Of a stretch of 37,944 nt of DNA, positions 366 through 37,944 are shown one piece after another. The notes beneath the pieces are model-generated. The model was given only the letters and a program-made list of their open reading frames with translations. It made no database searches and was not told the DNA's origin. Source of the stretch: a phage; sequence record PZ247578.1; one strand, written 5' to 3'. Positions within the stretch are counted from its first letter, which is position 1; each line of letters begins with the position of its first letter. The position numbers and the translations under genes were made by a program.

Positions 366-400
366 TTGACAAGATGTACCGACTTAAAGTAGTATGTACC
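366..400 (+). promoter_or_regulatory. Candidate host sigma70 early promoter resembling T7 A2/A3 (TTGACA ... TAGTAT GTACCACAT)
   Basis: TTGACA at 366..371, TAGTAT at 390..395 (18-nt spacer), followed by GTACCACAT as I recall downstream of the T7 A3 -10. Confidence 0.5.
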
Positions 401-510
401 ACATCAACACGAAACAACGGTGACGACCAACACTGAAATGGTCTACCTGAAGTCCTCTGACTGAAGGGAATGCTCTTTAACAATCTGGATAAACTCTTAA
501 TGTGCGCCGA

Positions 511-586
511 CAGTGATTAACTACAGGGTCTTTGAGTCTACATCTGAGGGCCCTGACTGATAGTCACTAACAACTGAGAGGATATA
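511..586 (+). repeat. Copy 1 of an approx. 75-bp duplicated leader element ending in the Shine-Dalgarno of the Ocr-like gene; candidate RNase III processing site or early regulatory leader
   Basis: Near-identical to 1331..1402 (a few mismatches); contains the self-complementary core AGGGCCCT. Confidence 0.6.
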
Positions 587-589
587 ACT

Positions 590-1087
590 ATGGAACGTAA
601 CGCTAACGCATACTATGAGCTGCTGGCTGCAACCGTTGAGGCATTTATCGAGCGTATTCAGTACGACCACCTGACTCAAGATGATGACTACAGCGATGCG
701 CTGCATGAGGTCGTAGACGGTCAGGTCCCGCACTATTACCACGAGATTTTTACGGTGATGGCTGCTGATGGTATAGACAACGAGTTCGAAGACTCTGGGA
801 TGATACCTGAAACCAAGGACGTAACGCGTATCCTACAAGCTCGCATCTATGAGGCGCTGTATAACGATGTGTCTAATAGCTTGGATGTAGTCTGGTTTGA
901 GGATGAAGAGGCAGACGAAGAGGATGAATATTGGGTAGTTGACGCTAAAACAGGCGCAATAATTGTGCAAGCTGTAGCTCTTGAGGTCGCTACTGCATGT
1001 GCCAAGGTTAACTATGCGGCAGGTCGCCACCTGAAGGTGGAAGACATCAATGATAACGTAGTGTTCGACCCTGCGGCTGAGGACTGA
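590..1087 (+). CDS. Ocr-like DNA-mimic anti-restriction protein (gp0.3 homolog) with a C-terminal extension of about 50 aa
   Basis: The stretch [45 protein letters not shown] matches recalled T7 Ocr ([45 protein letters not shown]); acidic [10 protein letters not shown] tract; SD GAGAGGA; 165 aa versus 117 aa in T7. Confidence 0.8.
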
Positions 1088-1092
1088 GAGCG

Positions 1093-1269
1093 ATGATAAC
1101 CTACGGTTTATGCCAGCACCACGTCACCATCGCCCGACTTATGGTCAAGACCGGGCAATTAAACCACGAGGAGTCTATGCGTCTCTTGAAAGTGGTCTAC
1201 AGGAGACGCAAGCGCATACACGACAGCTTACACTCTGAGGATAACCAACAATGTACAGATAACTTATAG
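1093..1269 (+). CDS. Small hypothetical early protein (58 aa), gene 0.4-position ORF
   Basis: ATG directly after the Ocr stop with a weak SD; below the ORF-track length cutoff, translated by hand. Confidence 0.3.
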   Translation: MITYGLCQHHVTIARLMVKTGQLNHEESMRLLKVVYRRRKRIHDSLHSEDNQQCTDNL

Positions 1270-2474: not shown

Positions 2475-5156
2475 ATGAGCGTCATCTCTATTGACAAACA
2501 CGACTTCTCTGATGTGTCGAACGCCATTGAGCCGTTTAACCTGCTGGCTGACCACTACGGGCAAGACCTTGCAGTCAAACAGCTTCAGCTTGAGCATGAG
2601 GCATATACAGAAGGCGAGCGACGTTTCATCAAGAACCTTGAGCGCCAGACTGAGCGCGGGGAACTGGCAGACAATCAGGTCGCCAAGCCTTTGATGCAGA
2701 CTCTGGTCCCTAAGATTGCGCAAGCCGTCAAGGAGTGGCATGAAGGTCCAGACGGGAAACTGTCAACCTCTCGTCCTAGCGTAGCGTTCACCATGTTGAG
2801 CACTGATGAGAAGGCCGTCAAGGACCGCTCTATGCGCATCTCCTGTGAGTCCGCTGCGGTTATCATACTGAAGGTCATACTCTCAAAGCTGGTAAAGCCT
2901 GAAGGGATACCGATTACACCGATGGCCTCCGCGATAGGTCGCACACTTGAGGACGAAATCCGCTTCGGTCGCATCCGTGACAAAGAGAAAGAGCACTTCA
3001 AGAAGGCGATAGCTGATAACCTGAATAAGAGGGCCGGGGCGTCATACAAGAAAGCCTACATGCAAGCGGTCGAGGCGTCCATGCTGGAGCAAGGCCAACT
3101 GGAAGATGCGTGGGGGACTTGGAGTCCTACAGAGGCTGTCCACGTTGGCATCAAGATGCTCGAGATTGTCATCCAGTCAACACAACTGGTCGAGCTTAAG
3201 CGGTACGGTGCTGGTAATGCAGCGGCTGACGTAGAGATGGTCCACCTGTCAGACTTCTGGGTCAAGAAGATGGCACAACGAGGATTCAGCCTTGCGGGTA
3301 TCGCTCCAGTCTACCAGCCTTGCGTCGTTCCACCTAAGCCGTGGACTGGTGTCGTAGGTGGTGGGTACTGGGCCAAAGGTCGCAGACCGTTACCATTGAT
3401 TCGCTTAGGGTCTAAGTCTGCGGTAGCACGTTATGAAGACGTATACATGCCTGAAGTCTATGACGCTGTGAATATCATCCAGAATACACCTTGGAAAGTG
3501 AACAAGAAGGTATTGGACGTGGTGAACACGGTCGAGAAGCTGAACAACACGCCTATTGAGGACATCCCTCAGATGGAACCGCTGAAGCCTGAGGACTATG
3601 CTGGTGAAACCGAGGAGGAACTAAAGGCATGGAAGAAGGCTGCTGCTGGTATCTATCGCCGCGAGAAGGCCAGACAGTCACGCAGATTATCACTGAGCTT
3701 TATCGTTAACCAAGCAAACAAGTTCTCTCAGTTCAAGGCCATCTGGTTCCCGTACAACATGGATTGGCGAGGTCGTGTCTACGCTGTCCCGATGTTCAAC
3801 CCTCAGGGTAACGACATGCAGAAGGGGCTCCTGACTCTGGCAGTCGGAAAGCCTATTGGTGCTGACGGTTTCAAATGGCTGAAGGTCCACGGTGCAAACT
3901 GTGCGGGTGTCGATAAAGTCACCTTCGATGAGCGCATCAAGTGGGTGGAAGACAACCACGAAAACATCATGGCTGCTGCTAAGGCACCGATGGATAGTAT
4001 TGAGTGGTGGGGCAAGTTAGACTCTCCGTTCTGCTTCCTAGCTTTCTGCTTCGAGTATGCTGGCGTAATGCACCACGGCTTGTCTTACTCCTGCTCGCTG
4101 CCGATAGCGTTCGATGGGTCCTGCTCTGGGATTCAGCACTTCAGCGCTATGCTTCGCGACCACATCGGTGGACATGCAGTAAACCTGACGCCATCCGGTA
4201 AGGTCCAAGACATCTACCGCATCGTGTCTGACCGCATTGAGGAGGAGCTTAAAGTCCTACTGGTTAACGGTACGGACAACGAGATGGTAACTCACGAGGA
4301 CAAGAAAACTGGTGAGATTACCGAGCGTCTCAAGCTGGGGACACGAGAGCTTGCCCGTCAGTGGCTGACCTACGGTATGTCACGAAAGGTCACTAAGCGT
4401 TCGGTCATGACTCTGGCCTACGGGTCGAAAGAGTACGGCTTCGCAGACCAAGTTTACGAGGACATCGTGATGCCAGCGATTGACTCAGGGTCTGGCGCTA
4501 TGTTCACTGAACCAAGCCAAGCGTCTCGCTTCATGGCAAAGATGATTTGGGAAGCTGTGAGTGTGACAGTAGTTGCTGCGGTTGACGCGATGAAGTGGCT
4601 TCAAGGTGCTGCCAAGCTGCTGGCTGCTGAGGTGAAGGACAAGAAGACTGGAGAAATCCTGAAGCCTTGCCTTCCGGTACACTGGGTCACACCTGATGGG
4701 TTCCCGGTCTGGCAGGAGTACCGCAAGAAGGATACTACTCGTCTGAACCTGATGTTCTTAGGGTCATTCAATCTTCAGCCTACCGTCAACAAAGGTACGA
4801 AGAAAGAGCTGGACAAGCACAAGCAGGAGTCAGGCATTAGCCCGAACTTCGTCCACTCACAAGATGGTAGCCACCTCCGCAAGACTGTAGTCCACACTCA
4901 CCGAAAGTATGGCGTGATGTCATTCGCAGTGATTCACGATAGCTTCGGGACCATCCCGGCTGACGCTGAGTATCTGTTCCGTGGCGTCCGTGAGACGATG
5001 GTAGAGACTTACCGCGATAACGATGTGCTGCTTGACTTCTACGAGCAGTTCGAATACCAGCTTCACGAGAGTCAGCGCGACAAGTTGCCTGAGCTTCCGA
5101 AGAAAGGTAAACTGAATATCGAGGACATCTTGTCTTCAGACTTTGCATTCGCTTAA
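2475..5156 (+). CDS. Single-subunit DNA-directed RNA polymerase (T7 gp1 homolog), 893 aa
   Basis: Catalytic motifs DGSCSGIQHFSAM and HDSFGT; length and position as in T7; ends in FAFA like T7 RNAP. Confidence 0.97.
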   Translation: MSVISIDKHDFSDVSNAIEPFNLLADHYGQDLAVKQLQLEHEAYTEGERRFIKNLERQTERGELADNQVAKPLMQTLVPKIAQAVKEWHEGPDGKLSTSRPSVAFTMLSTDEKAVKDRSMRISCESAAVIILKVILSKLVKPEGIPITPMASAIGRTLEDEIRFGRIRDKEKEHFKKAIADNLNKRAGASYKKAYMQAVEASMLEQGQLEDAWGTWSPTEAVHVGIKMLEIVIQSTQLVELKRYGAGNAAADVEMVHLSDFWVKKMAQRGFSLAGIAPVYQPCVVPPKPWTGVVGGGYWAKGRRPLPLIRLGSKSAVARYEDVYMPEVYDAVNIIQNTPWKVNKKVLDVVNTVEKLNNTPIEDIPQMEPLKPEDYAGETEEELKAWKKAAAGIYRREKARQSRRLSLSFIVNQANKFSQFKAIWFPYNMDWRGRVYAVPMFNPQGNDMQKGLLTLAVGKPIGADGFKWLKVHGANCAGVDKVTFDERIKWVEDNHENIMAAAKAPMDSIEWWGKLDSPFCFLAFCFEYAGVMHHGLSYSCSLPIAFDGSCSGIQHFSAMLRDHIGGHAVNLTPSGKVQDIYRIVSDRIEEELKVLLVNGTDNEMVTHEDKKTGEITERLKLGTRELARQWLTYGMSRKVTKRSVMTLAYGSKEYGFADQVYEDIVMPAIDSGSGAMFTEPSQASRFMAKMIWEAVSVTVVAAVDAMKWLQGAAKLLAAEVKDKKTGEILKPCLPVHWVTPDGFPVWQEYRKKDTTRLNLMFLGSFNLQPTVNKGTKKELDKHKQESGISPNFVHSQDGSHLRKTVVHTHRKYGVMSFAVIHDSFGTIPADAEYLFRGVRETMVETYRDNDVLLDFYEQFEYQLHESQRDKLPELPKKGKLNIEDILSSDFAFA

Positions 5157-37355: not shown

Positions 37356-37699
37356 CGCAATCATGGTAACGATTCATGAGCGGAAGACCTAAGGTCAGTA
37401 CGTGGATAAAGACTCACTCTACTGACCTTAGCTACTGTAGTCAAGGACTTTAGGTAACACCTTAATAGAAGCTCACCTAGGGTCATCCTACTTATTGGTC
37501 TATCCTAGTGTCGCCTGACCTACGGTCCTTGACCTACAGTAGCTGCCACCTACGGTCACTCGATGAGTTTTGGACCAAAAGTTTGAGACCACATCTCACA
37601 GTTCAAGAACCTCAAGTCTCCCCATAGGCCCTCTTTCAGTCCAGACCAAAGGCCCTACCCGTGCCAGTCTATCATAAGGTTAGACAGATGGTCAAGACG

Positions 37700-37788
37700 T
37701 TAGGTCAACGATAGGTTGGGACTATGGGTTAGGTCAACGATAGGTTTGGACTATGGGTTAGGGAAGGACGATAGGTTGGGACTATGGG
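37700..37788. repeat. Three tandem 29-31-bp repeats (TTAGGTCAACGATAGGTTGGGACTATGGG) just inside the right terminal array
   Basis: Read directly; T7-like genomes carry short repeat series next to the terminal repeats. Confidence 0.75.
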
Positions 37789-37823
37789 TCTGTCTCTGAG
37801 TCTCTATCTGTATAACCATAGGT

Positions 37824-37944
37824 CCTACAACCTACAGTCCTACAACCTACAGTCCTACAACCTACAGTCCTACAACCTACAGTCCTACAACCTACAGTCC
37901 TACAACCTACAGTCCTACAACCTACAGTCCTACAACCTACAGTC
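37824..37944. repeat. Right terminal tandem array of the same 15-bp unit (about 8 copies); probable part of the direct terminal repeat
   Basis: Same unit and phase as 1..70; the window ends inside the array. Confidence 0.8.

Follow-up and report, generated by a model that had tools for sequence, protein, structure and literature searches.

The first early gene of the phage represented by sequence record PZ247578.1 encodes a long form of Ocr in which the DNA-mimic core is followed by an acidic tether and a C-terminal domain of 48 residues that is predicted to fold on its own, evolves under purifying selection and is present or missing as a cassette among closely related phages. By our assessment, the chances are about even that this extra domain is an accessory protein-binding module located at each tip of the Ocr dimer. 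What is new is the discrete folded domain and its behavior as a cassette, both absent from Pfam and from the searched literature; the sequence itself is not new, the long form having been in the databases since phage K1F (2005).

The whole stretch of DNA analyzed (37,944 nucleotides) is hereinafter called the window. [quoted passage not shown] The open reading frame (ORF; plus strand, 165 aa) is as described, the peptide quoted from it corresponding to residues 118-165, and the extension is genuine, in that it is confidently predicted to fold, is conserved and is under selection.

The Ocr core of the gene 0.3 product

Ocr is the textbook DNA-mimic anti-restriction protein and is central to the work on BREX inhibition and on the sensing of anti-defense proteins. 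By its sequence, the product of gene 0.3 (590..1087, plus strand; ATG start, TGA stop, 165 aa) is unambiguously recognizable as a genuine phage Ocr. It matches the Pfam ocr family (PF08684) with 100.6 bits (cut-off 25; E=7.4e-29) across residues 8-94 and the PHROG 2568 'ocr-like anti-restriction' profile with E=7.5e-53; the latter profile, of 161 positions, extends into the C-terminal domain. A phmmer search of the PDB retrieved the T7 Ocr structure 1s7z (E=1.3e-24, residues 11-113) along with nine other entries for solved T7 Ocr, and the identity to T7 is 60.8% across residues 17-90 (tblastn). Alignment with T7 Ocr had been claimed for the first 115 residues; the homology is indeed strong, but it is secure only up to about residue 97, and acidity is the sole resemblance of residues 98-113 to the T7 tail.

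The helical, acidic DNA-mimic core (aa 1-97; 590..880, plus strand) was delimited using the Pfam and 1s7z matches, the AF2 model and the selection analysis described below. The model contains helices at residues 7-25, 35-59, 63-67 and 75-96, with pLDDT values that are mostly between 75 and 87 in this block, that is, the predicted core is all-helical, as expected for the Ocr family. The complete protein includes 39 acidic and 9 basic residues (net charge -30, pI ~4.05), with a net charge of -17 for core residues 1-103. The T7 Ocr-BrxX structure (PMC11317158) served as the source of the BrxX-contact and dimer-interface residues: H48, Y49, Y50, I62, D63, E65, S69, K76 and Q83 are identical in the window protein, F54 and M57 are conserved, and S59 is replaced by A. 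All the features examined (profile, T7 homology, helices, charge, contact residues and gene position) place the protein in the Ocr family and, given the core residues, the net charge and the gene position, we take DNA mimicry directed at type I R-M enzymes and BREX to be, by homology, the likely primary function.

T7 Ocr (gp0.3; PF08684; PDB 1S7Z), to which the core is homologous over residues ~8-97, is likewise a helical, very acidic product of the first early gene. Its 117 aa terminate in an acidic tail that is either helical or disordered, so the window ORF, which diverges after about residue 97, runs some 50 aa further. Neither T7 Ocr nor the Pfam model includes the poly-acidic tether and the 48-residue beta-beta-alpha-beta-beta domain of the window protein.

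A tethered mini-domain at the C-terminus

The alignment of the long-form proteins (n=121) consists of four segments: a conserved core, an acidic linker, a conserved block and a short acidic tail. The C-terminal end of the core together with the poly-acidic linker covers aa 98-113 (881..928, plus strand; acidic run at 104-113). The linker has a net charge of -9 and appears to be flexible, with pLDDT below 50 at residues 107-110 of the full-length AF2 model, and its length varies among the relatives from 0 to ~25 aa (P0106, P0111, P0099, P0107 and L057). At the extremes of this range, P0106 and P0111 have no linker at all ('WFEGEYWVVD'), and that of P0099 is approximately 25 residues long.

The conserved block corresponds to an accessory mini-domain of 48 aa (aa 114-161; 929..1072, plus strand), hereinafter the module, which was delineated from the AF2 model, the omega values and the cross-clade alignment. 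The predicted elements are beta1 (114-118), beta2 (124-129), a helix (131-143), beta3 (148-151) and beta4 (157-159). Inside the full-length model (AF2, 56-sequence alignment), the module has pLDDT values of 83-89 and, when modeled alone (AF2, 23 sequences), it reaches a pLDDT of 95.6 and a pTM of 0.79. Because of this confidence in isolation, the module appears to be a mini-domain capable of folding on its own rather than an unstructured tail; a common unstructured tail, which the sequence-only reading had allowed for, is excluded by the stand-alone model and by the omega value of the module.

The consensus of the block is 'EYWVVD..TG..I..AV.L..A..CAK..Y..G.H..VED.ND.VVFDP', with a near-invariant acidic beta3-beta4 hairpin (VED-x-ND). 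Across the aligned long-form proteins, the module region occurs in 112 distinct sequences, which share invariant scaffold positions; the net charge of the module varies and equals -9 in K1F and IME15. The short C-terminal tail is usually 'EEDCE', and the same tail is found on short alleles.

Purifying selection on the module

A tree-based parsimony count of codon changes in 15 long alleles yielded 128.8 synonymous and 95.2 nonsynonymous changes in the core (omega 0.20), and 85.5 synonymous and 78.5 nonsynonymous changes in the module (omega 0.27; P=6e-17 for omega<1, binomial test, 15 alleles); recombination may inflate both classes of changes, and the asymmetry between synonymous and nonsynonymous changes should not arise from it. 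The pairwise Nei-Gojobori omega values are in the range of 0.2 to 0.6 for the module and 0.04 to 0.34 for the core. Purifying selection on the module is almost as strong as that on the core.

The changes are unevenly spread along the module. Only synonymous changes were detected at Y114, V116, D118, T121, G122, L131, A134, G145, V150, E151, N154, D155 and V157-D160, and residues 150-161 are essentially frozen. Replacements concentrate at positions 123/124 and on the helix (132, 133, 140, 141, 143 and 144), and the helix cluster may reflect relaxed constraint on an exposed face, the surface exposure and electrostatics of the module being read from the sequence pattern.

The module is confined to Ocr genes

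Sequence and profile searches with the module against Pfam, PHROG, NCBIfam, PADLOC and PDB yielded no significant match, the weak profile matches being HTH_64 (E=0.025) and DUF6172 (E=0.18). A search of 1.84 billion cluster representatives with the module HMM retrieved only two matches, both to large repetitive proteins; long Ocr is absent from this output, presumably being clustered under short-Ocr representatives. One of the matches (residues 1189-1222 of P0123, 'ELNRICKELYSSGSLTARSMMVEDINKAVGYDP', E=1.6e-6) lies within a Thr/Ser-rich repetitive protein of 2313 aa and is probably compositional or due to chance. The tblastn search of 50,697 phage genomes identified the module in ocr genes only, and word-indexed searches with the module retrieved fragments only (P0121, P0122 and P0125). 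Across these searches, the module was found exclusively in Ocr genes or their deletion remnants. The apparent stand-alone module genes were rejected: P0121 and P0122 result from a +1 G frameshift or from truncation, and P0125 is a remnant of an internal deletion in Ocr.

Fold searches with the module returned only generic small alpha/beta matches, and the Foldseek matches were non-significant. The module resembles in fold class, without profile support, the ClpS/ribosomal L7-L12 C-terminal domain, the T4 Dmd antitoxin and AcrIF9. A ClpS-like adaptor was rejected, with no profile match and with the structural match limited to a beta-alpha-beta sub-motif of a fold of about 80 residues. For T4 Dmd, the profile searches yielded no match, and the Foldseek match was non-significant. 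Many small phage proteins, some inhibitors of host defense among them, belong to this fold class, and homology is not claimable. None of the homology or fold matches (Pfam, PHROG, NCBIfam, PADLOC, PDB and Foldseek) gives the module a function, and none points to the second target suggested in the sequence-only reading.

Several other possible origins of the extension were considered and rejected. Fusion with a downstream small gene does not apply: the ORFs compared after ocr (phiHAO2-2 gp02, Klebsiella P293, K1-5 gp04 and K1F gp0.35/gp0.4-like) are unrelated to the module, and the gp0.4-like gene follows long and short alleles alike. PF26807 is not the domain of the extension, as this family is Phage_T7_GP04 and its match to P0096 is due to a half-module fused to the neighboring gene product. 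Likenesses to a DUF2188-type W-V...EA...G...V pattern and to an EF-hand-like DxNxD loop were unsupported by every search. In the literature searched, there is no description of the extra domain, its cassette behavior or its function; the K1F genome paper (J Bacteriol 2005), which lies outside this coverage, might mention the length.

Distribution of the long form among phages

The window is the genome of a Kayfunavirus. Its gene 0.3 is 97-99% identical in DNA to the counterparts in dozens of Kayfunavirus phages that infect Escherichia, and vB_EcoP-22664BS1 encodes an identical protein (100%, tblastn). An Ocr homologue is present in 573 phage records. At least 80% of the 165-aa query is covered in 72 of these; elsewhere, the match is limited to residues ~1-97, in many cases with 80-88% identity, and the protein is 108-119 aa long. 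All of the best 120 of 500 protein relatives are long-form proteins (162-179 aa), and 119 of these contain the complete module, the exception being P0096, a deletion-fusion that retains the front half of the module. Altogether, the long form is present in roughly 80 of the 573 Ocr-carrying phage records (~1 in 7).

Divergent long Ocr proteins are encoded by Stenotrophomonas phage IME15, Escherichia phage Ebrios, five Aeromonas phages and Kosakonia phage Kc166A (183 aa). Across three clades, the modules share 25-28% identity, with W, V, A, G, V-E-(D) and P invariant. The type phage protein, K1F gp0.3 (PHROG 2568; 169 aa), is 81% identical to the window protein and has the same long architecture, and it and the other Kayfunavirus 'Ocr-like' proteins differ from the window protein in allelic detail only. 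The long protein is less unusual than had been implied, being the standard form of gp0.3 in K1F and about 80 deposited phages.

The usual label of the long form in public records is 'Ocr' or 'ocr-like', but in several deposits, long Ocr genes are misannotated as 'protein kinase', 'N4-like RNA polymerase' or 'hypothetical protein'. In Ebrios (L050, 1-309 and 553-1077) and vB_AroA_KFSA9 (L052, 1-161 and 559-1077), a T3-type SAM hydrolase, annotated in Ebrios as a methyltransferase, is encoded beside the long Ocr, so that two different anti-restriction strategies adjoin in the early regions of these phages.

Long and short alleles differ by a cassette

In DNA alignments of close relatives, long and short alleles have the same sequence on either flank and differ by ~160 bp. 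The boundaries of this cassette are marked by a short direct repeat, GA(A/G)GAGGA(T/C), in the sequence coding for the acidic tail. As defined by the long/short DNA alignment, the upstream copy of the repeat (GACGAAGAGGAT) is located at 914..925 (plus strand), and short alleles join precisely at this copy to the downstream GAGGAGGA(C/T)TGCGAG. Joining at the GAAGAGGA repeat corresponds to an exact deletion of the cassette, as observed in natural short alleles such as L017, which encodes the window protein minus exactly the module. The short alleles of phiHAO2-2 and of the IMG/VR sequences L011-L017 and L019 differ from the window gene in lacking exactly the module cassette of ~160 bp; their core identity is 84-89%, and all have the EEDCE tail motif. 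The gp0.4-like gene of the window is also located downstream in L014, L015, L017 and L019, and phiHAO2-2 has an unrelated downstream gene.

The downstream repeat copy in the window, GAGGAC followed by TGA (1079..1087, plus strand), was defined from the alignment and the C-termini of K1F and phiHAO2-2. The relatives have TGC in place of the TGA at 1085-1087, and because of this TGC-to-TGA change, the window protein ends in ...AAED, without the usual terminal Cys-Glu. The stop codon of the window gene does not overlap the start of the next gene, in contrast to the TGATG of the relatives.

In a neighbor-joining tree of the core alone (100 residues, low resolution), the long alleles of the K1F group are scattered among the short ones, and long alleles appear at three further places in the 'MERNANAYY'-type Ocr clade. 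The most economical reading would be that the module is old in this branch of Ocr and has been repeatedly lost through repeat-mediated deletion, with a possible contribution of recombination between phages to the presence-absence pattern.

Several rare variants were detected in addition to the clean short alleles. Three metagenome contigs (L005, 2501-2520, and also L006 and L007; runs SRR33193082-84) contain an extra G in TATTGGG(G)TAG, which breaks ocr up into two overlapping ORFs, one for an Ocr of 117 aa and the other for the module (59 aa); this +1 G might represent either natural truncation or a sequencing error in the homopolymer. In the metagenomic protein P0096 (7 contigs), the front half of the module is joined by a deletion to the C-terminus of the gp0.4-like protein (...GRHLKAVYEGHKRIHDSLHAEDK). 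The 57-aa ORF P0125 (L053, 3001-3174; also L054 and L055) consists of the first ~10 residues of Ocr and the back half of the module; here, an internal deletion removes the DNA-mimic core, that is, almost all of Ocr, in Kc166A-like contigs from three unrelated samples, which suggests recurrent natural loss of Ocr.

Putative function of the long Ocr

Under the interpretation that we favor, gene 0.3 would be expressed as a functional Ocr, a highly acidic helical homodimer that would be made first after infection, mimic bent B-DNA and plug the clefts in which type I R-M enzymes and the BREX methyltransferase bind DNA. A flexible poly-Glu/Asp tether at the distal end of each monomer would bear the folded 48-residue domain and, because this tether attaches the module to the distal end of the helix, one module is predicted to be located at each tip of the dimer. 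There it would serve as an accessory protein-protein interaction unit, with the invariant acidic hairpin and the fast-evolving helix face forming an extra contact, either with the same defense complexes or with a further host defense factor. Such a contact would widen or secure the anti-defense activity and would be dispensable for the basic DNA mimicry.

Residues E107, E111 and E116 of the T7 Ocr tail form bonds with BrxX (PMC11317158), and given that the acidic tail already touches BrxX, a folded unit at this end of the protein could be well placed for added contacts. The role of the module as an accessory binding unit is compatible with the frozen hairpin and the rapidly changing helix face, the selection on the scaffold, the exclusive association with Ocr and the presence or absence of the module among near-identical phages. 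The variation in linker length from 0 to ~25 aa and the clustering of the replacements on the helix are in line with a tethered, independent unit. That the module is accessory and not essential is indicated by the short alleles with the same flanks that differ only by the cassette, and by the mixing of long and short alleles in the core tree. As many related phages do well with short alleles, any benefit that the module confers is conditional. Weighing against the binding role, the module matches no sequence family, and its partner is one that we infer. A bolder and only tentative reading, to which we assign a low probability, is that the tethered mini-domain is a second anti-defense device, namely, a shield or inhibitor that keeps PARIS-like, Ocr-sensing abortive-infection systems from detecting the mimic, or a Dmd- or Acr-like inhibitor of another defense. 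If this were the case, long Ocr would be a two-function counter-defense protein, with the second function gained and lost as a cassette.

It is also conceivable, although unlikely, that the module is a structural helper that engages no external partner and caps or stabilizes the disordered acidic tail; it would then protect the tail against host proteolysis, promote folding or solubility, or lengthen the acidic DNA-like surface. A small, compact, variably acidic domain that is always encoded in cis with Ocr, with no independent copy found, would fit this role, as does the viability of the short alleles. However, the core-like selection and the frozen, exposed acidic hairpin in three clades that share only 25-28% identity exceed the needs of a passive cap, and the unconstrained length of the linker speaks against an extension of the DNA mimic in a fixed geometry. 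Were the domain merely a stabilizer, the present observations would amount to a minor refinement of annotation.

Another explanation, which we regard as quite unlikely, derives from the sensing of Ocr by abortive-infection systems. PARIS senses T7 Ocr via AriA binding and is triggered by diverse small acidic proteins; the module could act as a steric or electrostatic bumper against such Ocr-sensing systems, or inhibit them directly, so that the DNA mimic would go on blocking R-M and BREX while evading or neutralizing the sensors. Apart from the binding of Ocr by AriA, this possibility is favored by the properties of the module as an accessory, polymorphic unit, placed at the tips on a tether, which is what would be expected of a conditional arms-race trait, by the concentration of replacements on one face, and by the natural remnants of Ocr deletion, which show selection against Ocr in some settings. 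There is, however, no link between the module and PARIS or another sensor; moreover, AriA still bound T7 Ocr carrying a C-terminal Strep tag, so that C-terminal bulk alone is not obviously protective, and the strongly acidic variants of the module (net charge -9, K1F and IME15) might even favor PARIS triggering.

A change in oligomerization, whereby modules would pair within or between dimers and alter the stoichiometry of Ocr or connect it into chains, seems very unlikely. Edge-to-edge dimerization is frequent in small beta-sheet domains, and contacts between dimers are compatible with all the data presented here. Nevertheless, the dimer-interface residues of Ocr are unchanged, and the monomer AF2 model is already very confident. 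Given the distal position of the module on the long helix and the essentially linker-less P0106 and P0111, pairing of modules within a dimer appears geometrically implausible. The same residues and the same geometry, the latter bearing on how far the module could reach, make the altered dimerization proposed in the sequence-only reading improbable. Finally, the probability that the extension is an artifact or non-functional read-through caused by a frameshift in sequencing, the loss of a stop codon or a recent, accidental fusion to the neighboring gene is negligible: such errors or accidents are represented by the rare frameshifted and deleted variants (the +1 G in L005-L007, P0096 and P0125), but 72 deposited phages and the best 120 of 500 database proteins all have the same uninterrupted frame (with the back half of the module replaced in P0096), the module combines a confident fold with significant purifying selection, and the gp0.4-like neighbor is unrelated to it in sequence and is present after long and short alleles. 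A frameshift or sequencing error truncating the ORF, the other trivial explanation that had been raised, is excluded by the same conservation of the frame in 72 phages and by the purifying selection on the extension.

Returning to the accessory module, the matched natural long and short alleles, which differ by one clean cassette, make the contribution of the domain directly testable. Its role bears on the modular upgrading of DNA mimics in the phage-host arms race and is relevant for therapeutic Kayfunavirus phages against pathogenic E. coli.

The early region around gene 0.3

Gene 0.3 is the first early gene of the window, with the gene for the T7-type RNA polymerase (893 aa) located downstream at 2475-5156, and K1F has the same layout of these two genes. 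Upstream of gene 0.3, a consensus scan identified a candidate sigma-70-like early promoter, TTGACA-18-TAGTAT (366..395, plus strand; 10/12), which is singled out solely by its plausible position, the number of sites in the scan being not above that in shuffled sequence. The gene is preceded by the Shine-Dalgarno sequence GAGAGGA (576-582, plus strand).

This ribosome-binding site (RBS) forms the end of a 75-nt direct repeat (D2; 508..582, plus strand), a long interrupted hairpin, the second copy of which (1328-1402; 97% identity) precedes a 75-aa ORF at 1408 and likewise ends in the RBS of that ORF. The predicted RNA folds of the two copies have energies of -22.9 and -25.5 kcal/mol (z = -2.0 and -2.5), and no Rfam family matches the repeat. 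These repeats are probably T7-style RNase III processing sites, an assignment that we assume by analogy with T7 R0.3/R0.5.

Immediately downstream of gene 0.3, a separate gene encodes a gp0.4-like small protein of 58 aa (1093..1269, plus strand), which belongs to the 3' flank shared by long and short alleles. It is 76% identical (E=6e-29) to a protein of L006 that carries a precomputed match to PF26807 (Phage_T7_GP04). Between ocr and the RNA polymerase gene (1093-2475), the window contains small ORFs only (no longer than 108 aa), with no gp0.7-type protein kinase; a serine/threonine kinase is encoded at this position in the other long-Ocr phages Ebrios, KFSA9 and SAKp10309. A 21-nt near-tandem direct repeat (2414-2434 and 2437-2457, 86% identical) lies directly 5' of the RNA polymerase start codon (2475).

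Both ends of the window share a 15-nt tandem repeat (ACCTACAGTCCTACA; 1-113, 37699-37789 and 37822-37944), and a 29-nt tandem array is located close to the right one. Apparently, the window is an almost complete genome (~38 kb) that was cut within the repeat arrays beside the terminal repeat.
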